This document shows, piece by piece, positions 13,831 to 30,249 of a stretch of DNA of 64,000 nucleotides. Below the pieces are notes generated by a model. That model saw only the letters and a list, made by a program, of their open reading frames with translations, did not search any database and was not told the DNA's origin. The stretch's first letter is position 1. The number at the start of each line of letters is the position of its first letter. Both the position numbers and the translations under genes were made by a program. Location: NCBI GenBank assembly GCA_026195275.1, contig JAPHQU010000002.1, forward strand, positions 5,964 to 69,963. The letters are read 5' to 3'. The stretch comes from Minisyncoccota bacterium (GTDB lineage Bacteria; Patescibacteriota; Minisyncoccia; Phycocordibacterales; JABMNX01).

Positions 13831-14780
13831 GCACAAATAATACACAACACGATTTGATCGAACGGTTTGCAACCTATGTTTCAGCATACAAACATTCAAT
13901 GCAGTACGCGAGAGAAGAAAGAAGTGCAATTAAAAGAGTCCTCTACGGATTGCAGACATTTGGTTGTTCGTACATTTTTTACAATCTTGCGCGGTTCAAG
14001 ATACTGCCTCCTTGGGGTAGTGTGCGCAACAGATTCTTTTTTGGTAAGAATATGGTCTTACCGATGAGGGACCTCGGCACACATGTATTCTCCATGTACC
14101 AAATCGCACAAGACAAGAGCGAGATACGGTTAACATTGTGGATGCTCAAAAACCTTAGGGACACAGATATCGTATACGATGTTGGTGTTCATTTGGGGTA
14201 CTATACGGCACTTGCAGAGAAGGTTGCCACCGGTGGGGAGGTGCATGCGTTTGAAGCAAATAAGCGACTCTGTCATTATTTACATAAGAATTTCTCTAAT
14301 TCAGGGAGGGTCTTTATCACATGCAAAGCTGTCGCGGGATCTTCAGGAAAGGTCGAGTTTTATGATGCAACTGATGCCGAAGACAGTTCTACGAGCTCAC
14401 GTTTTAATCTGTCAAAATCAGACACAAAGCCGTCGAGTATTCCTAGTGTTAGTCTTGATGCATACACACGAGCAGGGCATAAGATCCCAACAGTGATAAA
14501 ATTAGACATAGAAGGCGGAGAGTACGATGCAATTGTAGGCGCGTCGAAATTGCTAGAGGATCATCGTCCGCGCGTTGTTATGGAAGTGTGGGGTGGAGAA
14601 ATGGGAAAGCAGTACTCTCAAAAGGCAGTCGAGAAACTTCAGAGTCTTGGATATCGCGCTTTCGCCATAGAAAGCGACGGGTCTATTTCTCAAGATCATA
14701 TAGTTGACCCGGTTGCACATATCTCAGGACATTCTCAAAATAATCCCCGAGATAATTTTTTGTTTATAAAAGGTTCATAA
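13827..14780 (+). CDS. FkbM-family methyltransferase
   Basis: VGVHLGYYT, IKLDIEGGEYDAI motif typical of Methyltransf_21/FkbM. Confidence 0.7.
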   Translation: MSTNNTQHDLIERFATYVSAYKHSMQYAREERSAIKRVLYGLQTFGCSYIFYNLARFKILPPWGSVRNRFFFGKNMVLPMRDLGTHVFSMYQIAQDKSEIRLTLWMLKNLRDTDIVYDVGVHLGYYTALAEKVATGGEVHAFEANKRLCHYLHKNFSNSGRVFITCKAVAGSSGKVEFYDATDAEDSSTSSRFNLSKSDTKPSSIPSVSLDAYTRAGHKIPTVIKLDIEGGEYDAIVGASKLLEDHRPRVVMEVWGGEMGKQYSQKAVEKLQSLGYRAFAIESDGSISQDHIVDPVAHISGHSQNNPRDNFLFIKGS

Positions 14781-14784
14781 AAGG

Positions 14785-15888
14785 ATGAAGAAAATTACCT
14801 ATATAGCAAATATCCGCATTCCAACTGAGAAAGCTCACGGTGTGCAGATCATGAAGATGTGCGAGGCATTTGGAAAGGAAGGGCACAATGTAACACTTGT
14901 CGCACCATGGCGATTTAATCCAGTGAAGGCGGATCCATTTGAATACTACGGAGTTGAGCGCAATTTCTCGATTACCAAACTCCCGTCGCTTGATCTGGTG
15001 CGATTTGGCCGGATTGGGTTTTTGATACAGCTCGCAACATTTAGCTTCTCGGCCTTCATCTACACCCTTATCAAAGATGTGGGAGTTATATACTCACGAG
15101 ACGACCTTGTATTGTGGCCAATAAGTTTTTTTAAGAAAAATGTCGTGTGGGAGGCGCATATGCCGCGCGATAATTACATCGCAAAGTCGCTTACAAAAAA
15201 GTTAAAGAAACTGATTGTCATATCACAGGGTCTGAAGGACTTCTTTGTGAATACTGGGATCTCTCCAGAAAATATTCTCGTTGCGCATGATGCTGTTGAC
15301 CTCGAAGACTTCTCTGTACAGGCTGACAAGAAGGAGACGCGAGAAAGGCTGGGTTTGCCACAAGACAAATCAATCGTGATGTATCTCGGGCGGCTTGACC
15401 CGTGGAAGGGGGTTGAGACTCTTCTTGAGACTTCACATATGCTTCCCGAAGACGCTCAGGTTGTTATAGTAGGAGAGGGAAGCGAGCTTGAGCGATATAA
15501 GCAAGAATATCCAAGCGTCATTTTCACAGGCCCGCTTCCGTATCGCGATCTGCCACAAAATCAGCAGGCGGCGGACGTTCTCGTGATTCCAAACTCAGGA
15601 AAGAGCGATGTCTCGCGTCTCTATACATCACCACTTAAGGTGTTTGCACATATGGCATCCGGTGTTCCTATTGTTGCGTCAGACCTGCCGAGTATGCGCG
15701 AAGTGCTCTCAGAGGAGACCGCGACGTTTGCTACCCCGGACGACTCTGACTCGTTTGCAGATGTGATCACTGGGGTGCTCGAGCAGCACGACGAATCTGT
15801 AAGCAAGGCGCGTCGAGCAGTTGGGGTAGTGCGGTCGCATACATGGCACAATAGAGCAAAAGATATTGTTGAATTTATAAAAACATAA
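14785..15888 (+). CDS. glycosyltransferase family 4
   Basis: GT-B fold, KVFAHMASGVPIVASDLPSMREV motif. Confidence 0.75.
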   Translation: MKKITYIANIRIPTEKAHGVQIMKMCEAFGKEGHNVTLVAPWRFNPVKADPFEYYGVERNFSITKLPSLDLVRFGRIGFLIQLATFSFSAFIYTLIKDVGVIYSRDDLVLWPISFFKKNVVWEAHMPRDNYIAKSLTKKLKKLIVISQGLKDFFVNTGISPENILVAHDAVDLEDFSVQADKKETRERLGLPQDKSIVMYLGRLDPWKGVETLLETSHMLPEDAQVVIVGEGSELERYKQEYPSVIFTGPLPYRDLPQNQQAADVLVIPNSGKSDVSRLYTSPLKVFAHMASGVPIVASDLPSMREVLSEETATFATPDDSDSFADVITGVLEQHDESVSKARRAVGVVRSHTWHNRAKDIVEFIKT

Positions 15889-15891
15889 TAA

Positions 15892-16578
15892 ATGAGTAAT
15901 CATTTACAAAATTTATTAAGCCATACACCTGATCTTCTCAGCAGGAAGGTTTTGGACATTGGATCTGGAAAAGGTGATTTTCTGGTTGAGGTTGCTATTG
16001 AGGGAGGAGAGGCGCAAGGAATAGAGAAACATAGAGAATACATAAAGGAAACTCTAAAGAACGCAAAGAGAAACAATGTGTCTGTGAAAGTTACGGAGGG
16101 TGTTGCTGAGAAGCTGCCGTTTCAGGATAAAGAATTTGGATTCATAAACATCTCAGAAGTTATAGAACATGTAAAAGATCCGAATCTGCTTATAAAAGAA
16201 GCTTACCGTGTTCTAGGGGATGACGGTACTGTGTACATAAGCATTCCAAGCAGGTTTAGTCTTAAGGATCCGCATTTTCATTTGTATTTCGTGAACTGGT
16301 TGCCAAGATTCGTGTCGGACTCATTTATCTCTATATTTGGAAAACATAAAGACTACAGTGGCGATGCGGGGAAACAAAGGTTGGGGGAGATGCACTACTA
16401 CAGATTTTATGACATAAAAAGGGATTTGGTTGAAGAAGGTTTCGAGGTTGTTGATATTAGGGAGGACAAGATTCGAAAGAAGTTTCGAGGTTTGCTAGGG
16501 GTAGTCATTCTGATTCTGTATAGACTATTTCTACGTCCATTTTATCTTGATACTTTTCATATCCTTTTAAGAAAATGA
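15892..16578 (+). CDS. class I SAM-dependent methyltransferase
   Basis: VLDIGSGKGDF (motif I), ISEVIEHVKDP, DDGTVYIS. Confidence 0.75.
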   Translation: MSNHLQNLLSHTPDLLSRKVLDIGSGKGDFLVEVAIEGGEAQGIEKHREYIKETLKNAKRNNVSVKVTEGVAEKLPFQDKEFGFINISEVIEHVKDPNLLIKEAYRVLGDDGTVYISIPSRFSLKDPHFHLYFVNWLPRFVSDSFISIFGKHKDYSGDAGKQRLGEMHYYRFYDIKRDLVEEGFEVVDIREDKIRKKFRGLLGVVILILYRLFLRPFYLDTFHILLRK

Positions 16579-17723
16579 AATTAAAATTGAAAACATTATT
16601 TCTTTTGTTTTTGTGCCTATGCCGATATGTGGTTTTCGGCAAAGCACAAAAGAAGCAGAAGACTTTTAAAAAGATCGCGATATTCCAAGGAGCAAAGTTG
16701 GGGGATATGGTGTGCACCACGCCAATGTTTAGAGCTGTTAAAGAAAAATATCCACAATCTCAACTTGTTGTTATCGGTGACGGTGTGAACAAGCGTCTTC
16801 TAGAGCACAATCCTGATGTAGACAGTTATCGTGTGTACAAGGAAGAGGATATTTTCTCGACCATTAAAGAAATAAAGAAAGAAGGTGTGGATTTTGGCTG
16901 CATCACCGGACCCAGCTTCCTGAATCTTGCTGTTCTTTATCTGGCTGGCATCCCACTGATTGTTGCTCCTGTAATCAAGAGTGGTTGGAGTCCTTGGGAG
17001 ACCATGAGTTATAAGATTCTTCGGAGGTTTGTTGAGACCCAACCGCATCACATGGGACAGTATGCCCCCAGAGAATATTTACGTTTGCTTGAGACCATCC
17101 ACATTTTCACAGATGATACAACAAAACACTTAGTGTTTTCTTCACAAGCTCAGCAAGAGACCAGAGCTTTGCTTGAGCAATACGCCGGTCGATTATTGAT
17201 TGGCATTTCACCTTCAGCGGGCAATAAGATAAAAGAGTGGCCAACCGAGCGTTTTGCTGAGGTTGCTAATTACATCGCGTCTCGATACGATGCAGTTGTG
17301 GTGATTATTGGTGGTCCCGGTGACGGCGAATATGCCAAGAGGATGAAAGCGGGTCTTGATAGAGATGTCGAATATGTTGATACAACGGGGATACTCTCCA
17401 TTGATGAATTAAAGGCATTGATAAGCAAACTCAATCTTTTTATAAGCGTAGATACTGGACCCATCTATATTGCAGAGGCATTCGGTGTTCCTACGATTGA
17501 TATAGTCGGACCAGTGGATGAAAATGAACAGCCACCTGTTGGTGAGAGACACAAGATAGTAGTGTTTGGACGAGATAAGCCAGAACTACATATTATGAAC
17601 TCCAGGATATATAATGAAAAGAAGGCTCGGATGCAAGTCGAGTCAATTAATGTCAAAGATGTTATTTATGAGATTGCAAAATTGGCTGTATTCTTGAAAG
17701 AAAATGAAACCAAAAAATCATAA
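16575..17723 (+). CDS. glycosyltransferase family 9 (heptosyltransferase-like)
   Basis: IAIFQGAKLGDMVCTTPMFRAVKEKYP N-term and C-term ISVDTGPIYIAEAFGVPTIDIVGP typical of GT9. Confidence 0.7.
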   Translation: MKLKLKTLFLLFLCLCRYVVFGKAQKKQKTFKKIAIFQGAKLGDMVCTTPMFRAVKEKYPQSQLVVIGDGVNKRLLEHNPDVDSYRVYKEEDIFSTIKEIKKEGVDFGCITGPSFLNLAVLYLAGIPLIVAPVIKSGWSPWETMSYKILRRFVETQPHHMGQYAPREYLRLLETIHIFTDDTTKHLVFSSQAQQETRALLEQYAGRLLIGISPSAGNKIKEWPTERFAEVANYIASRYDAVVVIIGGPGDGEYAKRMKAGLDRDVEYVDTTGILSIDELKALISKLNLFISVDTGPIYIAEAFGVPTIDIVGPVDENEQPPVGERHKIVVFGRDKPELHIMNSRIYNEKKARMQVESINVKDVIYEIAKLAVFLKENETKKS

Positions 17724-18873
17724 AAAGATTGTCATCGGTGCCGGCTACGGCATGGGGAATCTGGGCGATGAGGCAATCTGCGAGACCATTATTAACGATA
17801 TTCATTCTGTGGACGGATCTGCGTCCATCACAGTTCTCGTCTTTGAGAAGAACCTCTTTCTTGAGTCACATCCTGACCTTATTGACAACAGACGCATTCG
17901 CGTCCTGTCTATGGATTTTCGACGAGGAACTCTGCGTAGACCGAGGAAACTGTTTGATTTATTATTGGGAATAGTTGCTGTGATATATTGCGATATATTT
18001 ATCTGGGGTGGTGGTAACCTAATCAGGGATAGAAAATACTGGCTTAACATTTATATAAAACCGTTACTGTTAGCTCAAGCTCTAAGAAAGAAGATTATTA
18101 TATGGTCAATAGGCATTGATAACATCTCTAAGCCTGAGGTTATAAAACTCGCAAATAAGATAAGAAAGGTTGATGCATTTTCGGTAAGAGACAGAGCGAG
18201 TAAGGATAATTTTTTGAACATATCAAGACACTTCAATACTGGAGAGATTGATGTTATACGCGATCCAGTATTTCATTTCTCTAGCTTGGTCAAAAGGGTG
18301 CCTGCGAAGGATTATTGCACAATCGGGTTTAATATAACTTTTTGGAAGGCAGATTTTTCTAATGAAGACAAGACGGAAGATTTCGCGACTTCGTTTGCAA
18401 AGATCTTAAACAGTTTACACGAGAAGATAAAGTTAAGGTTGGTTTACCTTCCGAGTGCGCCAGAAAGAGATTCCTTAATGTATGAGCTTTTGTTAAAGAA
18501 AATGGACCCGTATATAAATCTAGAGTACCCAAAGATATCAACCCCATTGCAGTATGTAGAACATACCTCTGAACTCGATTTATTTATCGGTATGAGGATG
18601 CATTCCATCATTATGTCTTCAAATGTGACTCGTCTGCCTACCCTTGGAATTATCTATGACGAAAAAGTTCAAGCTTTGAGTGAAGAGGAAGGGTTGGGGG
18701 ACAACTTCTTTTCTATTGAGGATGTTATAGAGTATCCAGACAAAGTAGAAAGGAAAATATATGATTCCATAGATGATAAGTTACCGGCAATTGATTTTAA
18801 TAATGTAAGACAGGATTCATTAAAAATGATAGACGTAATAAAACCTATTATTTTCCACAAAGATACTGAATAA
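17704..18873 (+). CDS. polysaccharide pyruvyl transferase family protein
   Basis: IGAGYGMGNLGDEAI, IWGGGNLIRD, MRMHSIIMS motifs of PS_pyruv_trans (CsaB/WcaK-like). Confidence 0.65.
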   Translation: MKPKNHKKIVIGAGYGMGNLGDEAICETIINDIHSVDGSASITVLVFEKNLFLESHPDLIDNRRIRVLSMDFRRGTLRRPRKLFDLLLGIVAVIYCDIFIWGGGNLIRDRKYWLNIYIKPLLLAQALRKKIIIWSIGIDNISKPEVIKLANKIRKVDAFSVRDRASKDNFLNISRHFNTGEIDVIRDPVFHFSSLVKRVPAKDYCTIGFNITFWKADFSNEDKTEDFATSFAKILNSLHEKIKLRLVYLPSAPERDSLMYELLLKKMDPYINLEYPKISTPLQYVEHTSELDLFIGMRMHSIIMSSNVTRLPTLGIIYDEKVQALSEEEGLGDNFFSIEDVIEYPDKVERKIYDSIDDKLPAIDFNNVRQDSLKMIDVIKPIIFHKDTE

Positions 18874-18876
18874 ATT

Positions 18877-19623
18877 ATGAACAAAATATTGTTTACAACT
18901 AGTTGGGATGATGGTTCTGTACTGGACTTGAAGATCGCCGATTTATTATCGCATTATGGTATGAAAGGTACATTCTATATTCCAAAGAGCTTTGATGGAA
19001 AAAATGATAAGCATTCTGCTTATAACCGCCGACTCACAGAGAACGAGATTTGTTCTATTGCTACCTCTCATGAGGTGGGAGGACACTCGCTTACTCATCG
19101 CAGGCTTACCAACATCTCCTTGGAGGAGGCGAGAGGCGAGATCTTCGCATGTAAGGATTTTTTGGATAAAGTTACCGGTTCTCCAACCAAAGCGTTTGCT
19201 TACCCCGGTGGCGAGTTTGACAGGCAGATTACAGGAATAGTTAAAGAGGCAGGGTTTAAAGTTGCCCGAACGACCCAGAAGCTCACCATCCAGATGACTA
19301 AAGGACAGTTTCTAATGAGTCCGACTATTATATGTCAGCCATTTCCCTTCCGTAAATTAGACGCAAATCGATACTATTTTGGGAGGATTCTCGACCCTGT
19401 GAATGCTTATACACCAAAGCAATTTGTGCCCTCGTGGCAGTCGCTAGCAAGGAAGTGGTTTAAGAAATCTCTTGTTGAAGGCAGCTATTTTCATCTATAT
19501 GGCCATTCTTGGGAGCTTGAGAAATATGGTATGTGGCAAGAACTTGAATCCTTCTTGAAATTTGTTAAAGAGTATGGCGACGTTATTTATTTGTCCAACA
19601 GCGAAGTTATGGAACAGGTATAG
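18877..19623 (+). CDS. polysaccharide deacetylase (CE4/NodB-like)
   Basis: TSWDDG and GGHSLTHRRL motifs. Confidence 0.7.
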   Translation: MNKILFTTSWDDGSVLDLKIADLLSHYGMKGTFYIPKSFDGKNDKHSAYNRRLTENEICSIATSHEVGGHSLTHRRLTNISLEEARGEIFACKDFLDKVTGSPTKAFAYPGGEFDRQITGIVKEAGFKVARTTQKLTIQMTKGQFLMSPTIICQPFPFRKLDANRYYFGRILDPVNAYTPKQFVPSWQSLARKWFKKSLVEGSYFHLYGHSWELEKYGMWQELESFLKFVKEYGDVIYLSNSEVMEQV

Positions 19624-19669
19624 AGTCCGACTTTCTTGATGATACATTTCATATTAAACTTAAGATAAG

Positions 19670-20269
19670 ATGAAGCCACAGATGACACCAAAAGAAATTG
19701 AGATGATGGAAGAAATACTGTCATCGTATGGTCCACACATCGATGTCTTAGAGTGGGGTAGTGGCGGTAGTACAGTGTACTTCACGCGGTTCCTCCATAG
19801 TAAAGATATCTCGTACACATGGACAAGTATTGAATATAACAAGCTCTGGTATGACAAAATATCGGAGGCGGTGAGTAATGACGAAGATGTTGCGCTGAAA
19901 CTTTTTGATGTTGGAAATACTGAATTAAAACAACCTTATACACAAATGGATGAGTATGTCGCGTACCCTAGGACGCTCGGAAAGAAATACGACGTTATTC
20001 TTGTTGACGGAAGGAAGCGACACAGATGCTTGCTTGAAGCAAGTAAGTTATTAAGACCTGGTGGCACCGCGATTCTTCACGATGCGCGAAGGACGTATTA
20101 CCACGGCGCTTTTTCTGCGTACCCAAACAGTCGCATGCTTTTATGGACGGGTCTCTGGCAAGGAAAGCTGGAAGACCCAGGTTTGATTTGTAGAGCTATA
20201 AACTTTATGAGATATTGGTGTTTCCGTGCGTATACATTTTCGTTTCGCTTACGTCCAAGATCCTCATGA
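19670..20269 (+). CDS. class I SAM-dependent methyltransferase (Methyltransf_24-like)
   Basis: VLEWGSGGST, ILVDGRKRHRC; stop overlaps next start (ATGA). Confidence 0.6.
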   Translation: MKPQMTPKEIEMMEEILSSYGPHIDVLEWGSGGSTVYFTRFLHSKDISYTWTSIEYNKLWYDKISEAVSNDEDVALKLFDVGNTELKQPYTQMDEYVAYPRTLGKKYDVILVDGRKRHRCLLEASKLLRPGGTAILHDARRTYYHGAFSAYPNSRMLLWTGLWQGKLEDPGLICRAINFMRYWCFRAYTFSFRLRPRSS

Positions 20270-21519
20270 AGATAATACTTTTACATGACAGTTTCCCCCC
20301 ATATAGTTTTGGGGGCGGTGGGATTTCTGTCCAAGGAATTGCCGCTGTTTTGAAAAAAATCGGTCACGATGTCTCCGTTATTACCACGTGCAGGAAAGAA
20401 AGCGAGGAAGGAGTTTTCGACTGCGAGGGCATTAGGGTATTTAGGATAGCAAGTGACTACAGTGAAAGATGGCGTGCGTATCGAAGTCTGTATAACAATA
20501 AGGTTGTCCATAAGGTAGAGGAGATATTTAAGAAGATAGGTCCAGATGTTGTACATATCAATAGCATACATCACCACCTTTCATATCACTGCCTAAAGCT
20601 TGCTAGACAACAATCAGAAGTCGTTATATTTACCGCTCGTGATGTCATGCTATTTAATTTTGGTAAATTGCAGACGAGTAAGTATCTAAGAAATTTTGAT
20701 TATCGCACAACTTGGCATGACCATATTAAACAAGCAAGGAAGCGATGGAACCCTTTTCGTAATTTTATTATTAAGAGATACCTTAGGTATGCGGATAAGG
20801 TCTTTGCGATAAGTAAGTCATTAAGGGATGCTCTTAACCAGAATGATATAGAACACGTTGAGGTTATATACAATGGGATTGATGTTAGTGAGTGGCTTGT
20901 TGACCAAAGGATAGTTGTCGATTTTCAGACTAAGTATAGTCTGCAGGGTAGAAGAGTGATTTTATTCGGAGGAAGGTTGAGTGCAGCAAAGGGGGCAGAG
21001 AAAACACTTGAAGCACTTGTTAAAATAGTTAAGGAGATACCGAATGCAACACTGCTGGTCATGGGTAAGATTGATTGGTATGCGCAGGTAATGAAAGGGT
21101 ACGCTCGAGACCTAGATATAGAGGAACATCTTGTTTTTACTGGGTGGATTAAGGGAGATGAAATAAGGGCTGCATATGCGGCCTCTAATGTGGTATTAAT
21201 GCCATCAATTTGTTTTGATTCTTTTGGCAGGATTAATATAGAAGCGATGGCTTCCAAGAAGCCCGTTATTGGAACTTGTTACGGAGGAACCCCGGAGATT
21301 GTAGATGATGGAGTGACGGGTTATATAGTAAACCCCATGTATCCAGAAGAGATTGCCGAAAAGACCTTAGATTTACTCAAAAATCCAGAAAGAGCGGATA
21401 GGTTTGGTAAAGCTGGTTACGAGAGAGTAAAGAGTCATTTTAACCTGGAAGACAAGGTAAAAGAATACATTGCTGTATACGAAGCATTGTTAGAGGAAAA
21501 GAAAAGTGGGCCAATGTAA
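20266..21519 (+). CDS. glycosyltransferase family 4
   Basis: MKIILLHDSFPPYSFGGGG..., EAMASKKPVIGTCYGGTPEIVDDGVTGYIV; track start 20215 is an upstream extension. Confidence 0.8.
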   Translation: MKIILLHDSFPPYSFGGGGISVQGIAAVLKKIGHDVSVITTCRKESEEGVFDCEGIRVFRIASDYSERWRAYRSLYNNKVVHKVEEIFKKIGPDVVHINSIHHHLSYHCLKLARQQSEVVIFTARDVMLFNFGKLQTSKYLRNFDYRTTWHDHIKQARKRWNPFRNFIIKRYLRYADKVFAISKSLRDALNQNDIEHVEVIYNGIDVSEWLVDQRIVVDFQTKYSLQGRRVILFGGRLSAAKGAEKTLEALVKIVKEIPNATLLVMGKIDWYAQVMKGYARDLDIEEHLVFTGWIKGDEIRAAYAASNVVLMPSICFDSFGRINIEAMASKKPVIGTCYGGTPEIVDDGVTGYIVNPMYPEEIAEKTLDLLKNPERADRFGKAGYERVKSHFNLEDKVKEYIAVYEALLEEKKSGPM

Positions 21520-21531
21520 TCTATTAAAACC

Positions 21532-23307
21532 ATGACCACATTAAAACCCAAAGAGAGAATACTTGTTGTTTGCGGCAAGGATTTTCCTACCACACGCAGA
21601 ATTAAACACAAGTTTAATATAATCGTAGCAGATAAGATATTTCAAAAGGATGTAGAGACTCTAGGTTGCAGATTTATAGAACTCGGAATGTTTGTTGATC
21701 CAGGAAGCGTTTACAAAGCGGGCTCTTTCCTTGAAGAACTCTCTATATTGACCCTCCCGGATGGTTCCCGTCTTTCAAGGCGCTTTATATATAAAGGTTA
21801 TGAATTATGGTGGATACATTACAATAGTCTTTTTACTTATTTCTCTTTACCATACACTCAATATAAGAGGCTGCTTGAATATCTGAGGGATTTTCAGAGA
21901 GTGTCCTTTTATCAGCCTTCATTCAAGAGCCTTTTCTCTTGTTATCTACGTGCGTATGGGTGTGAAGTAAGTACTCTCCATGGGAGACATTTAAAATTTC
22001 CATCATTCCTTCCATTTGGTGTCTTATTTCAGATAATCCTTACCCTATTAAGTCTGCCTATTCTCACCATAAAGAAGTCGCCTGCGATGCTATTCACCGG
22101 AGACAAGTTTGAAGAAGACAAAGACTATGATTTTAGGATGAAATTTATTTATGAGGAGCTACGACAAAGAAATATCCGTTTTGTTGAATTTATCCGTAGT
22201 TTGGAATCGTGGAAGACTGTACTAAAGCATGCACTTAAACGAAGGAGACCTGTGATTTATTCAGACAGTATAGTTTTTATTGGACGGTTTATAAGCATAA
22301 TATCAGGTGGGCGACGTCGCGCTGAGCAGAAATTTGGCACTCATAAACTTATTTCTGAGACGGATCCTGAGAACCGGTTCAAATATCTGGTGGCTACCCA
22401 ATACCTCCTTACGGTGTACGATGACGTTTGGGCAATACGGATTATGGAATGGATTTTACACGCGATTGGTATCAGGGTAGCGCTGGTTATAAGTGCATCA
22501 GAACGCAGTTTTCACACTGTCTTAGGGTGTAAATTGAATTCCATACCAACAGTTGGAATCATGCACGGTGTTGCATCACGCTACGGAACTCCTTGTGACT
22601 TTATGATTGGCTTTGATGGCAAGAAGATGCTTTCGGTTGACAATTATGGTGTTTGGAGTGATTGGTGGAAGGTGCACTATATGAGGAATAGTCAATCGTA
22701 CAAACCTGAACAGATTCATGTGTCTGGTCCCATGCGTCCGCTTATGTTGGTGGAGGAACAGAATACAACCTCGACATCACAAGATGAACGAATGAGGGTG
22801 CTTTTTATCGCCGAGCAAACAGCTGATCCTAGTGAAGTGATGCTATATCTCCATAAGCTTTTACATTGCACGGATATAAGGTTGACGATAAAGTTCCGTC
22901 CATATCGCGACGGTTTTGAAATATGGCTTTTAGAGAACGAACCCCAGATCTTAAAACTCCCGCATATAAAGGTTGTTAAGGGAGGTATGCAAGAAGCAAT
23001 TCAAAATGTCGATGTTGTCGTTGGTTGTCATAGCACCGCTGTACTTGAAGCACTACTTCAGTTAAAAGTTCCCATCTTCCTTCGCACACAAAAGTGGGGT
23101 GACTACTACAGCATGACTCAATCAGATAAAACCCGACACCTAATCGCCGAGAATCCAGGAGAGCTCATTGAGCAGATTCAGCACGCAGGCACCATCACCC
23201 CAAGTCTTTTAACAGAGTTGCGCGAGCAATACTTTGGTGATCCGCATAAAAACGGGAGCAAGTGGGTGGTGGATCAGGTAGAAGAGATCCTGCAGAAGAC
23301 AAACTAA
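21532..23307 (+). CDS. hypothetical GT-B-fold protein, weakly TagB/TagF glycerophosphotransferase- or capsule-biosynthesis (KpsC/KpsS)-like
   Basis: C-terminal VVGCHSTAVLEALLQLKVPIFL resembles donor-binding strand of TagF/KpsC-type enzymes; otherwise no clear motifs. Confidence 0.35.
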   Translation: MTTLKPKERILVVCGKDFPTTRRIKHKFNIIVADKIFQKDVETLGCRFIELGMFVDPGSVYKAGSFLEELSILTLPDGSRLSRRFIYKGYELWWIHYNSLFTYFSLPYTQYKRLLEYLRDFQRVSFYQPSFKSLFSCYLRAYGCEVSTLHGRHLKFPSFLPFGVLFQIILTLLSLPILTIKKSPAMLFTGDKFEEDKDYDFRMKFIYEELRQRNIRFVEFIRSLESWKTVLKHALKRRRPVIYSDSIVFIGRFISIISGGRRRAEQKFGTHKLISETDPENRFKYLVATQYLLTVYDDVWAIRIMEWILHAIGIRVALVISASERSFHTVLGCKLNSIPTVGIMHGVASRYGTPCDFMIGFDGKKMLSVDNYGVWSDWWKVHYMRNSQSYKPEQIHVSGPMRPLMLVEEQNTTSTSQDERMRVLFIAEQTADPSEVMLYLHKLLHCTDIRLTIKFRPYRDGFEIWLLENEPQILKLPHIKVVKGGMQEAIQNVDVVVGCHSTAVLEALLQLKVPIFLRTQKWGDYYSMTQSDKTRHLIAENPGELIEQIQHAGTITPSLLTELREQYFGDPHKNGSKWVVDQVEEILQKTN

Positions 23308-24569
23308 GTATTTGTGTTTCTTCTCCACATACCAATACCAATCAATAGTGCTATCAGAGAATTGGATACATTTGCTATCACAAGTCCAAGTACTCCTCCC
23401 CAGATTCCTAGAATCACATAAAGTGTGACGAGTATGACACTTTGAATTATGCTTCTGATGAAAATGAGACGAGATAATTTCTGTGATTCAAAAAGGAGGC
23501 TGACATAGCGGTTGGGCATTGCAAAGATAAAACCTAACGCTAATATCTGCGAGTAGACAACCCCCTCTATATACTGAGGTAGTAGGTATTTGAATAAATA
23601 TGGCGAGATAAGTATATATGTGACCGCTATAAGCGTACCGATGAACATTCCCTGGAAGATTCTTTTGTAGAAAACAGTATTTATTTCTTCAGGTGTCTTT
23701 GTTGCGAACTTGGGGAATCCTAAGCCGACCCAGTTTTTCATGAATGAGGTTGCTCTGTCTGGTACAGCAAGGGCAAGCCAATACACAGCAAGCTGTGCCG
23801 GACCCCAGAAGTGCGTGAGAATGATCTTGTCTATCTGTCCAGTGATTGGTCCAATGAGTCGTATAAAACTTAGCTTGCGACCATACTTGAGTACGTCTCC
23901 AACATCGCCCTCTAGAGACGGCTTGAACTTTCGCAGGATGACAATATAAAAGAAGAGTGTTGTGGCAAACGTCGTAATAGCATAAGCGGCTATGAGCCAC
24001 ACTATTTCTCCGCTTAACAGGATTGCAGCTAGAATACCGCCCACATATACGAGAGTGGATATGATGTTCGATATGCTAGCGAATTGGAACTTTCTTTTCC
24101 CTTCAAGATAAGCGCCGTATGTATTTAAGGCGAGAGTTGAAGGAACAAAGATACCTAAAATAAGAAAGGATATCGCAAGAAGAGTATTGTCATTTATGAA
24201 ATAGTATCCGCTGAAGGTAAAGAACGCAGTAAGCATCAACAAGTTCCACTTGAGTTGGTATTTGACAGAAACCCTGAGCGCTCCGTCGTGCCCCGCGGCA
24301 ACAGCTCTTGCAACTGCGCTGTTCATGCCGGTGAGCGTGAATATATTCAACACGCCTGCTAAGGCAAGGATGTAGCGGTAGAGACCATAAACATCTTTTG
24401 GTAGCAAGTTAGCAAAAGCCACTATGAGCCCCAACGAGAGAATGCTCGTGATGGTTTGTCCAAATGTCACCCAAAAGCCGCCTTTGGCGAGGTAGAGCAT
24501 GTCGGTTTTTGTGTACTTTTCGCTCCAACGGAGGAGGCGATAGAGCTTGTTTCTGGCTTTGGGTATCAT
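23304..24569 (-). CDS. wzx: oligosaccharide flippase (Wzx / polysaccharide biosynthesis protein, MOP superfamily)
   Basis: ~12 predicted TM helices, length 421 aa, typical N-terminal KGGFWVTFGQ... of Wzx family; only large minus-strand gene in cluster. Confidence 0.7.
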   Translation of the reverse strand: MIPKARNKLYRLLRWSEKYTKTDMLYLAKGGFWVTFGQTITSILSLGLIVAFANLLPKDVYGLYRYILALAGVLNIFTLTGMNSAVARAVAAGHDGALRVSVKYQLKWNLLMLTAFFTFSGYYFINDNTLLAISFLILGIFVPSTLALNTYGAYLEGKRKFQFASISNIISTLVYVGGILAAILLSGEIVWLIAAYAITTFATTLFFYIVILRKFKPSLEGDVGDVLKYGRKLSFIRLIGPITGQIDKIILTHFWGPAQLAVYWLALAVPDRATSFMKNWVGLGFPKFATKTPEEINTVFYKRIFQGMFIGTLIAVTYILISPYLFKYLLPQYIEGVVYSQILALGFIFAMPNRYVSLLFESQKLSRLIFIRSIIQSVILVTLYVILGIWGGVLGLVIANVSNSLIALLIGIGMWRRNTNT

Positions 24570-24638
24570 GGTATGTATCTTAATCTATTGCGTGCGGTCG
24601 AGCTAGCACCACAGGGCGCAGGGTGGTATAGTTTTTCT

Positions 24639-26825
24639 ATGAAAGTTGAGAATATTCTGAGAAAAGTGGTCCTTGCGGGGATCTTTTTGATTCCATTTAT
24701 TCCGTTCATCGTTTCCTCAAGTCTCTTTTTCCCGTTCATTACCGGGAAAAACTTTGCATTCCGTATCATAGTTGAGATCATCTTTGGCGGCTGGCTCGGG
24801 CTTATGCTCTACAATCCGGCGTATCGGCCGCGTTTCTCGTGGCTTCTTGCGGCAATCGCCTCGTTCGTCGGCATCATTGCCCTTGCTGACATTTTTGGCG
24901 AGAACCCGCTTAAGAGCATCTGGAGCAACTTTGAGCGCATGGAAGGTCTGGTGACGCTCGTGCATCTCTTTATGTACTTCCTCGTAGTTGGAACTGTCCT
25001 TAATACGGAAAAGTTGTGGACACGATTCTTGAATACATCTGTTGCGGTCTCCGGCTTGCTCGGCATCTACGGTCTCTTCCAGCTTTGGGGATTCATCACC
25101 ATCAACCAAGGTGGTGTGCGACTTGATGCAACATTCGGCAACGCGACGTATCTCGCAATCTACATGCTTTTCCATGTATTCATCACTGCACTGCTTTTGA
25201 TGCGTTTTAAAGGGGATCGAATCGTGCGACACCTCTATATAGGAATCATGGCGCTACAGGTGATGATGATCTACTTCACTGCGACACGTGGTGCGATTCT
25301 CGGTCTTCTCGGCGGAGTGATTTTCGCCGGATTGCTCGTTGCTATTTTTGAACGAGAACAAAAGACACTTCGCAAGACCGCAATCGGTGCGGTAGTCGCG
25401 GTGCTTCTTGTTGTTGGCGGGTTCTTCGCTATCAAGAACACTGAGTTTGCAAAGGGGAGCCCGGTGCTTGGTCGTTTCACCAACCTCTCACTCTCAAGCG
25501 GTACGGTTGACGCGCGCTTCCAGATTTGGGGCCTAGCTATTGAAGGGGTCAAAGAACGACCACTTCTCGGTTGGGGGCAGGAGAATTTTAACTTTGTCTT
25601 TAATAAGTACTACAAGCCGGAGCTCTACAAGCAGGAGCAGTGGTTTGACCGCACGCACAACATTGTCTTCGACTGGCTGATTGCCGGTGGCATCCTCGGT
25701 TTCCTCGCGTACCTTGCTATAGCACTCGCGACACTCTTCTACCTGTGGCGGCCGCGTAATACCTTCTTGTCTATTCCTGAGAAGAGTGTCATCACCGGTT
25801 TGCTCGCGGGTTACGGCTTCCACAACCTCTTTGTATTCGACAATATCATAAGCTACATTCTCTACTTCACGGTGATGGCGTTCGTGTGCTTCTCGTATCG
25901 GGAGAGCATCAAGCCTGAAGTGGGTGAGGTAGAAACAAAGACTCTCGGTACCGACATAACCTCCCGTGTGTATGTGCCAATTATTGTTGTGATTACCATT
26001 ATGGCGCTGTATCTAGTGAACGGGAAGCCGATACTCACCGCGCACGCGCTCCTTCGCGCAATTGCGACACAGCCGGGGAGCGCAGAGCAGATTGAGTCGT
26101 TCAAGAAAGCGTTTTCGTACGACACATTTGGCAACCAGGAAGCAGCAGAGCAGCTTGCGCAGATCTCGACACGCATCGCAGCGAATCGTTTTGATATTGA
26201 GGTAAAGCAGCAATACCTCTCGCTTACCGAGACGGAGATGCAGAAGGTTGTCGACCGGGTACCAAACGACGCACGCACACAGCTTTTCTTCGGGACAGTA
26301 TTTGACTCGTTCAGTCAGTACGCAAAGGCGCAGCCGCACCTTGTGCGCGCGAACGAGCTCTCACCCAAAAAACCAACCATCCTCTATCAGCTTGGTTTTA
26401 ATGCATTCAATCGAGGTGATACAGCGGGCGGACTTGGGATCTTTAAGGAAGCATATGAACTTGCTCCAGAATCGAAGGACGGAGCGATTTACTACGCGGT
26501 TGGTGCGGTGAATTCAGGCGACCGAGCTCTCCTTGAGGATATCCTTATCCCAACGTTTGGTTCCATCATTGTCGATAGCGACCACTTGGTGCAGGCGTAC
26601 TTTAATAATGGGATGCTCCATGAGGTGCTTGCGGTATGGAGATTGCGCGTCGAAGAAGACCCAAACAATCCACAGAAACGCCTTGGGCTCGCCGCTGCGT
26701 ATCTTGAGCTTGGTCAACGCCAGAATACGATAGCTGAGCTTGAGAAGATGATCGAGCTTGATCCAAACTATAAAGCGCAAGGAGAGTACCTTATCCGTGA
26801 GATTCGTGCCGGAAGGAATCCGTAA
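24639..26825 (+). CDS. O-antigen ligase/polymerase-family membrane protein (Wzy_C) with C-terminal TPR repeats
   Basis: Polytopic N-terminal domain with FTATRGAILGL (Wzy_C-like) then soluble TPR-like C-terminus (NPQKRLGLAAAYLELGQRQNTIAELEKMIELDPN); start chosen at Met before first TM helix, divergent from wzx. Confidence 0.65.
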   Translation: MKVENILRKVVLAGIFLIPFIPFIVSSSLFFPFITGKNFAFRIIVEIIFGGWLGLMLYNPAYRPRFSWLLAAIASFVGIIALADIFGENPLKSIWSNFERMEGLVTLVHLFMYFLVVGTVLNTEKLWTRFLNTSVAVSGLLGIYGLFQLWGFITINQGGVRLDATFGNATYLAIYMLFHVFITALLLMRFKGDRIVRHLYIGIMALQVMMIYFTATRGAILGLLGGVIFAGLLVAIFEREQKTLRKTAIGAVVAVLLVVGGFFAIKNTEFAKGSPVLGRFTNLSLSSGTVDARFQIWGLAIEGVKERPLLGWGQENFNFVFNKYYKPELYKQEQWFDRTHNIVFDWLIAGGILGFLAYLAIALATLFYLWRPRNTFLSIPEKSVITGLLAGYGFHNLFVFDNIISYILYFTVMAFVCFSYRESIKPEVGEVETKTLGTDITSRVYVPIIVVITIMALYLVNGKPILTAHALLRAIATQPGSAEQIESFKKAFSYDTFGNQEAAEQLAQISTRIAANRFDIEVKQQYLSLTETEMQKVVDRVPNDARTQLFFGTVFDSFSQYAKAQPHLVRANELSPKKPTILYQLGFNAFNRGDTAGGLGIFKEAYELAPESKDGAIYYAVGAVNSGDRALLEDILIPTFGSIIVDSDHLVQAYFNNGMLHEVLAVWRLRVEEDPNNPQKRLGLAAAYLELGQRQNTIAELEKMIELDPNYKAQGEYLIREIRAGRNP

Positions 26826-26837
26826 TTAGAGTAGAGG

Positions 26838-26865
26838 TTGCATTTTTTTGAGAATGTGCTATATT
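26838..26865 (+). promoter_or_regulatory. sigma70-like promoter TTGCAT-16-TGcTATATT (extended -10)
   Basis: Read directly: TTGCAT 26838-26843, TG at 26857-26858, TATATT 26860-26865. Confidence 0.5.
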
Positions 26866-26871
26866 ATATTC

Positions 26872-27170
26872 GTGAGTGTCACATTCGTGTGGCTCTAACG
26901 AAAATCTGCGTAAGTCCCGCCCTCGTGGCGGGTTTTACGTTTCTGAAGAAATACCCATTTAAATATACATTTAAATGGGTATTTCTTTTAGGTTGCACAG
27001 TGCATTGTGAAGCGCGTATACTAAGTGGGTGCGGCGATCCTCCCAAGGTACGGGGGACGGCGGCACTCACATTAGATCTTCGTTTTGGAGCTCGCACCCG
27101 TTCCCCATATCTCGGTGGGATCGCTTGCAGAAAAAACAAAACCGATACACATGTATCGGTTTTGTTTTTT
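26872..27170 (+). ncRNA. candidate small structured RNA: short attenuator-like hairpin+U-run (26908-26936), 17-bp perfect inverted repeat (26946-26983), GC-rich segment, strong terminator (27126-27168)
   Basis: Promoter upstream, no ORF, multiple perfect hairpins, terminal aaaaccgatacacatgtatcggttttgttttttt; does not match RNase P, tmRNA or SRP conserved motifs by eye. Confidence 0.35.
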
Positions 27171-27432
27171 TAAAAAGTACATGAACACAACAACAGTATT
27201 AATAACGTCATTAATGCTGTCGGTGATAAACATTTAACTAAAAAGATCTAACGTTACAGATTTTTTATTTTTTGAATTATTTTTTGTTATCCACAAAAAC
27301 TTTTTAACTTTTTATTGTGTTTGCACGTTGTACGTTCGATAATATAAGTAACTTCTCTAACGCGTTACAACGTTTTCTTTTGTACAAAAGAGGAGGGGTC
27401 GACATTACTAAGAAGATCATTCATTAGACATC

Positions 27433-27675
27433 ATGCCAGCACGAAAACGAAAAGCAGCTAAGAAGACAACACGTCGCAAGGTTGCTAAGAAAGCAGCTAA
27501 GAAGACGACGCGTCGCAAGACAACTCGTCGTAAGGTTGCTAAGAAAGCAGCTAAGAAGACGACGCGTCGCAAGACAACTCGTCGTAAGGTTGCTAAGAAA
27601 GCAGCTAAGAAGACAACTCGTCGTAAGGTTGCTAAGAAAGCAGCAAAAAAGACTACCCGTCGACGAAAGCGATAG
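27433..27675 (+). CDS. histone H1-like / Hc1-like highly basic repeat protein (KKAAKKTTRRK repeats), likely nucleoid-associated DNA-binding protein
   Basis: 80-aa ORF that is ~50% Lys/Arg with tandem repeats; underlying DNA is an imperfect tandem repeat; followed by strong terminator. Confidence 0.6.
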   Translation: MPARKRKAAKKTTRRKVAKKAAKKTTRRKTTRRKVAKKAAKKTTRRKTTRRKVAKKAAKKTTRRKVAKKAAKKTTRRRKR

Positions 27676-27703
27676 TAGCCTCTTTGCAGGACTATTTCTA
27701 ACA

Positions 27704-27746
27704 AAATCCCCCGGAGAGGTCAATGACCACCTCCGGGGGATTTTGT
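27704..27746 (+). terminator. rho-independent terminator (13-bp stem aaatcccccggag / ctccgggggattt)
   Basis: Perfect inverted repeat with 14-nt loop and T-run, immediately 3' of the histone-like gene and ~15 nt before secA. Confidence 0.7.
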
Positions 27747-27762
27747 GCTACTATAGGTGCGT

Positions 27763-30249
27763 ATGATTACTGCTTTTAAGAAGCTATTTGGTGACGAGCA
27801 TGCCACGGCACTCAAGAAACTGAACCCCATCGTCGCGAAGATAAACGAGCTTGAGCAGGCTACTGCGCCACTCTCTGATGATGACCTTCGTGCGCGGACG
27901 GCTGAATTCCGCACTCGACTCAAAGAGGGGGAGACTCTCGACGATCTTCTACCAGAGGCGTTTGCTGTCGTGCGTGAAGCGGCGAAGCGAACACTCGATC
28001 AGCGCCACTACGACGAGCAGCTTCTCGGCGGCATCGCGCTTCACCAAGGCGACATCGCAGAGATGCGCACTGGAGAAGGGAAGACTTTAGTTGCAACACT
28101 TCCGGTGTACCTCAATGCGCTTCCCGGGAAGGGTGCGCATGTGGTGACAGTAAACGACTACCTCTCACGGCGTGATGGTGTGTGGATGGGGCAAGTCTAC
28201 GCATTCCTCGGTCTCTCAGTCGGTGTCATAAATCAAGGACAATCATTCCTCTATGACCAGTCTCATACAAATAAAGGAGAAGACGAGGAGCGTGATGAGC
28301 TTGGTTCGTTTAAGGTAATCCACGAATTCTTACGCCCATGTAGCCGAAAAGAGGCATACGAGGCAGACATTACGTACGGGACAAACAACGAGTTTGGGTT
28401 TGATTACCTTCGCGACAATATTGAATACGAGAAAGAGAAGCTCCGCCAACGTGAGTATTATTTCGCTATTGTTGATGAGGTAGACTCGATTCTTATTGAT
28501 GAGTCGCGCACACCGCTTATCATCTCGGCGCCGACAGTCGAGTCGGAAGATCTCTACACAACATTTGCGGACATTGCGCGGCGATTTGTGAAAGATACCG
28601 ATTTCTCTGTCGATGAAAAGCAGAAAGCAATCACACTAAGCGATGAGGGTATCGAGAAAGCGGAGAAAATTCTCGGTGTCGAGAATATCTATACTGAAGG
28701 TGGTATTAAGTATGTGCATCATCTCGAGACCGCCGTGCGCGCAAAGGCACTTTTTGAAAAGGACAAAGAATATGTTGTGAAGGATGGGGAGGTGGTTGTT
28801 GTTGATGAATTCACCGGACGTCTCCAGCCAGGGCGACGGTGGTCGGAAGGACTCCATCAGGCAATTGAGGCAAAGGAGGGTGTCGAGATCCAACGTGAGT
28901 CGCGCACCTTTGCGTCAATCACATTTCAAAACTATTTCAGGCTCTACGATAAGCTCGCGGGTATGACGGGAACCGCAGAGACATCCTCGGAAGAGTTCTA
29001 TAAAGTGTATGGACTCAATGTACTCCCTATCCCGACCCATGTGCAACCGCAGCGTATTGACCGCGACGACCTCATCTACCAGAGCGAACTCGGCAAGTTT
29101 AAAGCTGTTGCGCGAAAGGTGGGTGAGCTTCACGAGAAGGGACAACCAGTTTTGATTGGCACGGTTTCTATTGAGAAAAACGAGCTCTTAAGTGCCTACC
29201 TCAAGCAAGCAGGTGTTCCACACCAAGTGCTTAATGCCAAGAACCACGAGCACGAGGGCGAGATCATTGCACAGGCCGGAAAGCGCGGAAATGTGACTAT
29301 TGCGACTAACATGGCTGGTCGCGGTGTCGACATTAAGCTCGGTGGTAACCCCGGGACTGAAGGTGAGTATGAAGCGGTTAAAGCACTCGGCGGACTCTTT
29401 GTTTTGGGTACCGAGCGACACGAAGCACGCCGTATCGACAACCAGCTCCGTGGACGCTCGGGTCGCCAAGGGGATCCAGGTGAGACACAGTTCTTTGTCT
29501 CTCTTGAGGACTCGCTTATGCGTGTCTTTGCATCCGACATGATTAAAAACATGATGGGGCGTTTTGGTATTCCTGAGGATCAGCCTATTGAAAACAAGAT
29601 GATCACACGTTCACTTGAGTCGGCACAGACCAAGATAGAAGGATTCCATTTTGATGCCCGCAAACACGTGCTTCAGTACGACGATGTGCTCAATCAACAG
29701 CGTTCGTCGGTGTATCGAGACCGTCACGCAATACTTGTTGGTCAAGATGATGACGTTCTGCAGCGACTCGATGGGATCATCTCCGGTGATGCGAGATTGA
29801 TCAAGGTTATTACCGAGAAAAAAGAAGAGCTTGGCAAAGATGCGTTTGTAACCACGGTACGCAGGATGTTGCTCCAAATTATTGACATGTTGTGGGTGGA
29901 GCATCTCGAGATGATGGATTATCTACGCGGCAGTGTGAACCTGCGAGCATACGGTCAGCGCGATCCACTCGTTGAGTATAAGAAAGAAGGTTTGCGTATG
30001 TTCAAGGATATGGAGGGTTCATTTGCACATCATGTGCGTGAAGCACTCCCAAAGATAGGTGCCACTGCATTCTCACAGGAAGAACAAAAGATGAAAGAAG
30101 TGCACGAGAGTGCACGGCTCATTGGTGGTGATGTTGCACCGGGAAGCGTAGCGAAACAGGTGCCCGTCTCGGGAGTAAAAAAAGTCGGACGTAACGACCC
30201 ATGTCCGTGCGGATCAGGGAAGAAGTATAAACATTGCCATGGAAAGTAA
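27763..30249 (+). CDS. secA: preprotein translocase ATPase SecA
   Basis: DEAD-like motor motifs (MRTGEGKTLVATLP, VDEVDSILIDE), C-terminal zinc-binding CPCGSGKKYKHCHG; alternative GTG start at 27757. Confidence 0.9.
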   Translation: MITAFKKLFGDEHATALKKLNPIVAKINELEQATAPLSDDDLRARTAEFRTRLKEGETLDDLLPEAFAVVREAAKRTLDQRHYDEQLLGGIALHQGDIAEMRTGEGKTLVATLPVYLNALPGKGAHVVTVNDYLSRRDGVWMGQVYAFLGLSVGVINQGQSFLYDQSHTNKGEDEERDELGSFKVIHEFLRPCSRKEAYEADITYGTNNEFGFDYLRDNIEYEKEKLRQREYYFAIVDEVDSILIDESRTPLIISAPTVESEDLYTTFADIARRFVKDTDFSVDEKQKAITLSDEGIEKAEKILGVENIYTEGGIKYVHHLETAVRAKALFEKDKEYVVKDGEVVVVDEFTGRLQPGRRWSEGLHQAIEAKEGVEIQRESRTFASITFQNYFRLYDKLAGMTGTAETSSEEFYKVYGLNVLPIPTHVQPQRIDRDDLIYQSELGKFKAVARKVGELHEKGQPVLIGTVSIEKNELLSAYLKQAGVPHQVLNAKNHEHEGEIIAQAGKRGNVTIATNMAGRGVDIKLGGNPGTEGEYEAVKALGGLFVLGTERHEARRIDNQLRGRSGRQGDPGETQFFVSLEDSLMRVFASDMIKNMMGRFGIPEDQPIENKMITRSLESAQTKIEGFHFDARKHVLQYDDVLNQQRSSVYRDRHAILVGQDDDVLQRLDGIISGDARLIKVITEKKEELGKDAFVTTVRRMLLQIIDMLWVEHLEMMDYLRGSVNLRAYGQRDPLVEYKKEGLRMFKDMEGSFAHHVREALPKIGATAFSQEEQKMKEVHESARLIGGDVAPGSVAKQVPVSGVKKVGRNDPCPCGSGKKYKHCHGK

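Follow-up and report, generated by a model that had tools for sequence, protein, structure and literature searches.

What does an extremely basic and very short open reading frame (ORF) directly upstream of secA do in a patescibacterial genome, and is it a gene at all? The ORF in question occupies positions 27433–27675 of the forward strand in a stretch of 64,000 nucleotides from contig JAPHQU010000002.1 of a Minisyncoccota bacterium (the window, to which all coordinates refer). It runs from ATG to TAG and specifies 80 amino acids (MPARKRKAAKKTTRRKVAKKAAKKTTRRKTTRRKVAKKAAKKTTRRKTTRRKVAKKAAKKTTRRKVAKKAAKKTTRRRKR), of which 27 are Lys and 18 are Arg (56% K+R); Asp, Glu, aromatic and large hydrophobic residues are absent and the net charge is about +45. 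Tandem Repeats Finder reported a 54-nt period in 3.1 copies with 95% identity (27463–27627), and a 39-nt period in 2.4 copies is nested within it. An earlier note made from the sequence of this DNA had described an extremely basic, low-complexity ORF built from imperfect tandem DNA repeats, and the ORF and repeat calls bear this description out. No second polybasic ORF that could be a paralogue was found in the window. Elsewhere, polybasic ORFs with the same promoter, leader and terminator recur in more than 100 independent loci, which is far beyond chance.

This recurrence was established in two ways. Homologues of secA were sought in 185,579 species genomes, 80 loci were retrieved and the DNA upstream of secA was scanned. 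The closest relatives of the window SecA belong to the Patescibacteria class Paceibacteria (labelled Kaiserbacteria, Taylorbacteria and Paceibacterota), with 75–77% identity at best. Of the 61 Patescibacteria loci, 47 have a small, extremely basic ORF on the same strand 5′ of secA, and two further ORFs of 14 amino acids were spotted by eye; among the 13 outgroup loci (Chloroflexota, Acidobacteriota and Bdellovibrionota) there was none. The non-coding DNA 5′ of these ORFs is strikingly conserved across relatives. Metagenomes were scanned using a purely non-coding pattern, GTTATCCACA-N39–44-GATAAT-N30–60-GGTCGA, which returned at least 120 loci. As the pattern fixes a DnaA-box-like site, the −10 hexamer and GGTCGA, claims on these three elements are based on the genome loci retrieved through SecA. 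Among the matches listed, a polybasic ORF begins shortly after GGTCGA in 110 of 120 metagenome loci, and secA follows it in 85 of the 91 loci that could be evaluated, with a median gap of 113 nt. In a few loci the module stands before unrelated genes (L088, L127, L171 and L175), at a distance of 3 kb from secA (L177) or, in L009, on the other strand.

Members of the family are 14–103 amino acids long with a median of 31 (123 distinct members of 18–103 residues, with lengths of 14–15 also seen). Most have 20–35 residues, so that the 80 residues of the window protein place it at the long end, where it is atypical. The average composition of the 123 members is K 45.5%, A 22.8%, R 12.0%, T 6.8%, V 6.6%, P 3.8% and S 1.4%, with a mean K+R content of 57%; Asp or Glu occurs in just three members, and hydrophobic residues other than Ala and Val make up less than 0.5%. 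An N-terminal M-[A/P]-x-K-K-K (MAAKKK) motif and a C-terminal run of Lys and Arg are conserved, and basic residues recur at lags of 1, 4–5 and 9. Within the window clade the leader and both termini are common to all members, while the interiors consist of TTRRK, PAKRK or SSRK repeats. Only charge and composition are constrained in the family, and short repeats that expand and contract keep renewing the interior. The strains L147 and L153, which are 99.3% identical over 3.9 kb, differ by one in-frame 24-nt unit (AAPKRRKK). The search for homologues and repeat polymorphism proposed in the earlier note has thus yielded a family in Patescibacteria loci, and the repeat-number variation expected there is seen both between species (14–103 residues) and between these two nearly identical strains.

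Several observations bear on whether the ORF is translated or is instead just a side effect of a tandem DNA repeat rich in purines, or of a non-coding RNA. The three copies of the 54-nt unit show 10 pairwise differences, all at third codon positions and all synonymous. Among 24 nearest-neighbour pairs of orthologues of equal length, 178 of 301 differences (59%) fall at codon position 3. The amino-acid changes are mostly A/V, A/T and K/R, together with 17 A/K exchanges that may in part reflect misaligned repeat register. Although the nucleotide sequence diverges completely, the start codon ATG, the N-terminal motif and the basic end of the protein are retained, and indels are in frame. Arg is encoded by CGN only (CGT in 10 of 18), Ala by GCT or GCA only, Val by GTT only and Lys by AAG in 20 of 27 cases, and the protein is confined to six amino acids. 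This bias (CGT/GCT/GTT/AAG) departs from that of the other genes in the window, although the repeat copies are not independent observations. The earlier note had named a frame not conserved among relatives as the mark of an untranslated ORF; the frame is conserved, with substitutions biased to third positions. From these substitution patterns we infer that 27433–27675 is a real, translated gene, and it is under purifying selection for polycationic composition.

In favour of non-translation, further frames are open as well (antisense frame −2 in 122 of 123 loci), no Shine–Dalgarno sequence precedes the ORF, and gene callers omit it: an exact look-up of 20 family members in a collection of 15 billion proteins found 20 of 20 absent. 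The open additional frames may, however, themselves explain why gene callers fail on polybasic ORFs, and the missing Shine–Dalgarno sequence is normal for this genome, because only about one in 38 window genes has one in a usable position. An untranslated ORF is accordingly regarded as extremely improbable. Many window genes carry a TAnnnT −10-like element, often preceded by TG, 6–15 nt 5′ of the ATG (for example the starts at 27763, 30928, 32048, 33556, 53302 and 54012), which suggests that leaderless mRNAs or mRNAs with very short leaders are widespread in this genome.

The region 5′ of the ORF had been described in the earlier note as AT-rich, and this is so: the GC fraction is 0.285–0.30 over 27100–27400, compared with approximately 0.48–0.50 for the window. 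A promoter was located here (Table 1) with the consensus ATTGtaT-17-GATAAT; in the 26 genome loci found via SecA only, its conservation is 70% or more. As the consensus is the same in these loci, it is not an artefact of the search pattern; an alignment of the four closest relatives shows the promoter too. The DnaA-box-like 9-mer TTATCCACA lies upstream of it, is the sole exact match in the 64 kb and is conserved in relatives. The gap between box and −10 is 38–44 nt in 123 of 123 loci and 39–41 nt in 111 of them, the metagenome loci among these having been selected by pattern. No second box-like 9-mer occurs within −250 to +300 in 113 of 123 loci. The site probably binds DnaA, given its agreement with the universal consensus TTATNCACA, and the A/T tract between box and −35 resembles an UP element and may act as one. 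Transcription of the small gene would start near 27350, placing the centre of the box near −58. The box is read as a transcription-factor site rather than as part of an origin. An origin of replication formed by the box and the AT-rich region was considered and rejected: there is a single box, GC skew is positive across the window and genes on both sides lie on the forward strand.

The predicted transcript opens with a leader of about 83 nt, which stands out in a genome where leaders are commonly short or missing. Helix P2, which starts about 2 nt past the presumed transcription start, pairs CUUCUCU (27352–27358) with AGAGGAG (27389–27395) and was recovered by RNAalifold on the six members of the window clade. 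The palindrome TAACGCGTTA (27358–27367) and an inner hairpin (27377–27390) lie within this region and GGUCGA follows at 27397–27402; GGTCG is invariant among the loci. For a clade of 21 sequences, 12 leader pairs were predicted, seven of them with compensatory double changes. A second helix, P1, in which the 12 nt after GGUCG pair with the 5′ leader over at least 7 bp, can form in 50% of loci, compared with 19–22% in shuffled and cross-locus controls, and dozens of different sequences form it; in the window clade it is weak and would overlap the presumed transcription start. No relevant Rfam match was found over 26700–27800 at gathering score or at E ≤ 1, and a covariance model of one leader clade (R1) was too clade-specific to detect the window-type leader. 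GAGGAG at 27390–27395 was tried as a ribosome-binding site and rejected, as it is 35 nt from the AUG, belongs to the 3′ strand of P2 and lies in a genome without Shine–Dalgarno use. Across clades the GGUCG leader is a candidate new cis-regulatory RNA motif in which a variable, covarying hairpin or enclosing helix surrounds the invariant GGUCG(A). Two distant clades share a conserved palindrome, (U)AACGCGUU(A), near the 5′ end and a third has AAACGUUU. The 5′ strand of one clade, GUGGUGAU, has two possible partners downstream, AUCAC and AUCAUCAC, which hints at alternative structures.

Downstream of the ORF the earlier note had reported a perfect terminator stem of 13 bp; the perfect stem is present, but it is 16 bp long. 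The 91-nt terminator region folds at −42.8 kcal/mol (z = −6.9), and a simple consensus scan for terminators missed the stem because its loop is longer than 8 nt. In 113 of 121 family loci a terminator-like hairpin starts at most 70 nt past the stop codon. A smaller hairpin (27676–27697; GUAGCCU-CUUUGC-AGGACUA) sits right after the stop codon, 5′ of the main terminator, and is conserved in L002 and L018, the nearest relatives, where a compensatory change (CCU/AGG versus UCU/AGA) is seen. The following gene, secA, has an extended −10 element of its own (Table 1); T(G/A)TGnTAnnAT is conserved 6–20 nt 5′ of the secA ATG in relatives, and 85 of 116 loci have TGnTAnnAT downstream of the small gene, compared with 15 of 123 control segments. 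Having this element, secA would be transcribed on its own, outside the unit of the small gene, and its mRNA is probably leaderless or nearly so. By its layout the small gene is autonomous and monocistronic, with its own predicted promoter, leader and terminator, a separate −10 for secA and a module that sometimes precedes unrelated genes. It is apparently built for strong, controlled expression.

Table 1. Features of the polybasic gene locus and its surroundings in the window.
Feature	Position	Strand	Details
Hairpin RNA, ~95–100 nt	27030–27129	+	Promoter-like TGCACA-17-TATACT at 26994–27022; terminator at 27130–27172
DnaA-box-like 9-mer TTATCCACA (inside GTTATCCACA)	27287–27295	+	Lone site at a fixed distance 5′ of the promoter
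A/T tract between box and −35	27296–27314	+	Consensus tTTTtTttaAAAAaat in SecA-retrieved genome loci
Promoter	27315–27343	+	−35 TTGTGT (27315–27320), 17-nt spacer, −10 GATAAT (27338–27343)
Structured 5′ leader, ~83 nt	27350–27432	+	P2, palindrome, inner hairpin, GGUCGA, A/U-rich stretch to AUG
Polybasic protein gene	27433–27675	+	Repeat unit KTTRRKVAKKAAKKTTRR; ORF and repeat calls
Intrinsic terminator of the small gene	27701–27746	+	Perfect 16-bp stem 27701–27716/27731–27746, core UCCCCCGGAG/CUCCGGGGGA, then UUUUGUG
Extended −10 element of secA, TGTGCTACTAT	27744–27754	+	8 nt 5′ of the secA ATG at 27763
secA	27763–30249	+	Pfam SecA_DEAD, 6e-122; other SecA domains also matched

The order of promoter, leader, short ORF, hairpin and secA, present in the 85 of 91 evaluable metagenome loci among the matches listed, could also be that of a cis-acting leader peptide (an upstream ORF) whose translation controls terminator read-through or secA translation in the manner of secM or an attenuator, perhaps by sensing the charging of Lys and Arg tRNAs or by stalling on the polybasic nascent chain. 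Many of the ORFs comprise merely 14–30 codons, and in the fold of the window the region around the stop codon forms an outer helix with the bases immediately 5′ of secA. This outer helix is not conserved in relatives, however, and was rejected as a secM-like switch. With a conserved extended −10 only 6–20 nt before its ATG, secA would have an internal AUG without a Shine–Dalgarno sequence on any read-through mRNA; the distance from stop codon to terminator (about 2–30 nt) and the length of the ORF (14–103 codons) are ill-suited to a tuned attenuator; and the signal or transmembrane segment that a secretion monitor needs is lacking. The modules found before unrelated genes, 3 kb from secA or on the opposite strand also speak against this explanation, as does purifying selection on protein composition exceeding what codon sensing would need. 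Like secM-secA and leader-peptide attenuators, the locus has a short ORF directly 5′ of secA followed by a stable hairpin; unlike them it has no signal or arrest motif, gives secA its own promoter, lacks a fixed geometry and also occurs away from secA. A leader peptide is considered very unlikely.

The same adjacency to secA might be taken as a link to export, the product then being an antimicrobial or cell-penetrating polycationic peptide directed at a host by an episymbiotic cell. Bacteria of the Candidate Phyla Radiation (CPR) are often episymbionts, and protamine-like and polylysine-like peptides are membrane-active. Against this, none of the 123 members contains a signal peptide or hydrophobic segment, the neighbourhood has no conserved transporter, immunity or maturation genes, and control through a DnaA box is hard to square with an effector. 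We regard an exported peptide as highly improbable.

The window protein was compared with known families. An hmmscan search against Pfam at E ≤ 1 returned 0 families. The winged-helix domain of linker histone H1/H5 (PF00538) is absent, with no Pfam match and low complexity throughout, and chlamydial Hc1 (PF07432) was likewise not matched at E ≤ 1, the protein having no non-basic N-terminal dimerization domain. The Hc2 profile (PF07382) gave no match at E ≤ 1, a weak negative given the composition correction of HMMER on such sequences. NF038053 of NCBIfam (hist_H1_lk_Burk, which includes the BpH1 type) scored 7.4 bits (E = 4.8) against a cut-off of 80. No ribosomal-protein family in Pfam or NCBIfam was matched, and neither length nor interior is conserved in the family. 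A word-sharing homologue search examined 8000 candidates and found none at E ≤ 1e-3. A phmmer search of 1.84 billion cluster representatives gave no small-protein matches and two weak matches, both inside large proteins. Since the composition correction suppresses such queries, sequence homology is uninformative for polybasic proteins. Exact look-up of the window polybasic protein, its SecA and its Obg found none on record, and in full-text searches of the literature on CPR, Patescibacteria and Parcubacteria no family, leader or promoter of this kind was found described.

Polycationic nucleic-acid-binding proteins are a kind already known, and the window protein and its family have the features of this class (a K+R content of 40% or more, hardly any acidic or aromatic residues and no globular domain). 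The C-terminal domain of H1, sperm protamine-like proteins and protamines are K/A/P/T-rich or R-rich and acid-free, are disordered alone and become helical on DNA; all of them condense DNA through charge neutralization. The family shares the K/A/P/T-rich or R-rich, acid-free composition, and the AlphaFold single-sequence model of the 80-residue protein is a single helix (residues 4–79, pLDDT 90.7, pTM 0.43). Such one-helix output is what is expected of a K/A-rich sequence and is no evidence of a stable fold. The family differs from H1 and the protamines in being bacterial and in lacking a winged-helix domain and detectable homology. Most members, with 20–35 residues, are nearer in size to protamines or oligolysine than to H1, and the smallest are shorter than protamines.

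Among known systems the pentamer region of Hc2, along with the C-terminal domain of H1 and protamines, comes nearest in composition and repeat dynamics. The chlamydial histone-like protein Hc2 (HctB) consists of pentamers with two or three basic residues plus A/V/T/P, its repeats are duplicated and deleted in frame to give strain size variants, and it binds nucleic acid by charge (PMC2848022). Repeats without a globular domain, units of basic residues with A/V/T/P and in-frame repeat polymorphism are common to Hc2 and the family; the window protein and its relatives show Hc2-type lags of 1 and 4–5, K/R/A/T/V/P composition and in-frame variation in repeat number (L147/L153). Hc2 is, however, 165–237 residues long, about 40% basic and equipped with a distinct C-terminal domain, whereas the family has 14–103 residues (median 31) and is 57% basic, belongs to a CPR lineage and appears to be regulated through a DnaA box and the GGUCG leader. 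Bordetella BpH1, whose size varies between strains (PMC2848022), the Burkholderia H1-like proteins, the C-terminal tails of mycobacterial HupB and Streptomyces HupS and Pseudomonas AlgP are bacterial K/A-rich repeats as well and bind DNA, but they either have at least 180–200 residues or form the tail of a protein with an HU fold. The likeness to H1, Hc1, Hc2 and BpH1 drawn in the earlier note therefore holds for composition of the H1-tail and Hc2 type and for repeat dynamics; it does not extend to profile membership or to a globular or dimerization domain. The protein plausibly works like an H1 tail, Hc2 or protamine, without being a demonstrable member of those families. The family is set apart by its very small size, its wide occurrence across Paceibacteria loci, its regulatory cassette and its absence from protein catalogues.

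We tentatively favour, at slightly less than an even chance, an abundant polycation that binds nucleic acid without sequence specificity and acts on the nucleoid, in the manner of an H1 tail, Hc2 or a protamine. Sequence features point to high expression, control by DnaA, binding and compaction of nucleic acid and a role for the leader. A strong promoter (UP-like A/T tract, −35 and −10) with a single DnaA box near −58 would drive the small gene, an arrangement which suggests that synthesis of the polycation is tied to the status of DnaA and so to replication. The leader hairpin near the 5′ end most likely stabilizes the mRNA, serves feedback control or does both; that the invariant GGUCG is a feedback or processing site is speculative. 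The strong terminator would close the unit, leaving secA to its own extended −10 promoter. The peptide would then bind the phosphates of nucleic acid, as the C-tail of H1, Hc2 and protamines do, and would neutralize and compact the chromosome of a very small cell. The lone DnaA box points to replication coupling and fits a chromosome-coating protein, and the nucleoid polycation is therefore placed first.

Several points weigh against this reading. The sequence evidence does not favour binding to DNA over binding to RNA or the ribosome, and the AlphaFold helix, the usual output for a K/A-rich sequence, is silent on the binding partner. Most members, with 14–35 residues, are far shorter than any characterized H1-like nucleoid protein that we know of. 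Ribosomal-protein genes under autoregulation typically have structured leaders that carry an invariant motif. A role in the nucleoid does not account for the near-universal adjacency to secA. Patescibacteria carry HU-family genes (COG0776; PMC12455944), so that a dedicated condenser is not obviously needed, and the suggestion in the earlier note of a major chromatin component is not established; a tblastn search with E. coli HU, confined to the window and the 200 loci, found no match in them. The uS19 protein of Parcubacteria has an A/K-rich tail (PMC9297842), and A/K-rich segments in this lineage can thus be ribosome-associated.

The last of these points leads to the main rival, a polycation of the ribosome or of RNA, which would fill or neutralize the ribosomal RNA (rRNA) of the reduced CPR ribosome, as do eL41, bTHX, bS22 and bL37, or would serve more generally as an RNA chaperone or counter-ion; in that case the RNA target of the peptide would be mimicked by the GGUCG leader for autoregulation. 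The proteins eL41, bTHX, bS22 and bL37 are mini ribosomal proteins of 24–35 residues and almost entirely basic, and the 14–35 residues and extreme basicity of most family members match them. The covarying leader structure with its invariant motif is like that of ribosomal-protein leaders, and the gene is monocistronic with a promoter and a terminator that are both strong. Besides the uS19 extension in Parcubacteria, CPR ribosomes are without several proteins and rRNA segments (PMC9297842). On the other hand, mini ribosomal proteins are fixed in length and sequence, whereas the family shows free repeat turnover and a seven-fold range of length, and within one clade the interior is freely swapped (TTRRK, PAKRK or SSRK) behind the same leader, which is unlike the fit to a defined rRNA pocket. 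Copy number is polymorphic at strain level, similarity to ribosomal proteins in Pfam and NCBIfam is lacking, and the DnaA box in the promoter points to replication and not to ribosome synthesis. A ribosomal or RNA-directed role is thus judged unlikely, although it deserves more weight than any other alternative to the nucleoid polycation.

A bolder form of the nucleoid polycation, which we hold to be improbable, would be a dedicated and tunable ‘oligolysine’ counter-ion: a protamine-like principal neutralizer of chromosomal, and perhaps ribosomal, phosphate in cells too small and metabolically too poor to depend on polyamines, licensed by DnaA in each round of replication and fed back through a GGUCG leader that senses free polycation. 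If true, it would be a bacterial analogue of the supply of histones in S phase, and the polybasic gene would have escaped every protein catalogue because it is short and of low complexity. CPR/Patescibacteria make up a large share of bacterial diversity and their cells are among the smallest known; the family is present in most loci examined from one CPR class and looks highly expressed. Should its members be nucleic-acid polycations, they would add a protamine-like solution to bacterial chromatin and an example of apparently DnaA-linked expression of a chromatin-type protein. The family also exposes a systematic blind spot of gene callers for short ORFs of low complexity. It has also brought to light two candidate RNA motifs outside Rfam, the GGUCG leader and a hairpin RNA of about 95 nt, and the compact cassette of promoter, leader and terminator could serve CPR genetics.

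The hairpin RNA lies upstream of the DnaA-box-like site (Table 1). Its apical domain, GGCGGCACUCACAUAAGA...UUUUGGAGCUCGCACCCGC, is invariant and its basal stems covary strongly, with compensatory double changes in 22 of 27 pairs; the window copy has z = −8.4. A covariance model (R2) detected it once per locus in 38 Patescibacteria SecA loci; the 13 non-Patescibacteria loci had no copy. A comparison with Rfam, extended to E ≤ 10, gave no detectable relation to SRP, 6S or any other family. A −10-like TATACT is present about 7 nt 5′ of its base in many loci, and the RNA either has a terminator of its own downstream or directly adjoins the start of a murB-like gene. The usual order is hairpin RNA, (murB), polybasic gene and secA; in L010, L038, L043 and L058 the hairpin RNA is directly upstream of secA and there is no polybasic ORF. 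Matches below threshold to the Pseudomonas small RNA P9 in Rfam were seen about 100–190 nt upstream of the hairpin RNA in the window (26860–26936, forward strand) and in L016 (2161–2230, forward strand), with 25.3 and 29.9 bits, respectively, against a gathering score of 43. The match in the window overlaps a terminator-like hairpin (26916–26932) just after the gene upstream of the locus, which encodes a Wzy_C/TPR protein (Pfam), and is probably only a terminator.

Among loci L004–L074, many metagenome-assembled genomes (TPA records) are titled ‘uncultured Candidatus Saccharibacteria bacterium’, with SecA 60–71% identical to that of the window. They share the Paceibacteria-type polybasic module and the hairpin RNA, and the labels are probably generic misassignments. 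Upstream of the locus, at 12001–26825, a long run of genes mostly on the forward strand is devoted to the synthesis of cell-envelope polysaccharide. It includes a GT4 glycosyltransferase, a Polysacc_synt flippase (reverse strand), a methyltransferase-like gene and the Wzy_C O-antigen-ligase-like/TPR fusion. The GC fraction over 12–24 kb is 0.40–0.45, below that of the rest of the window.

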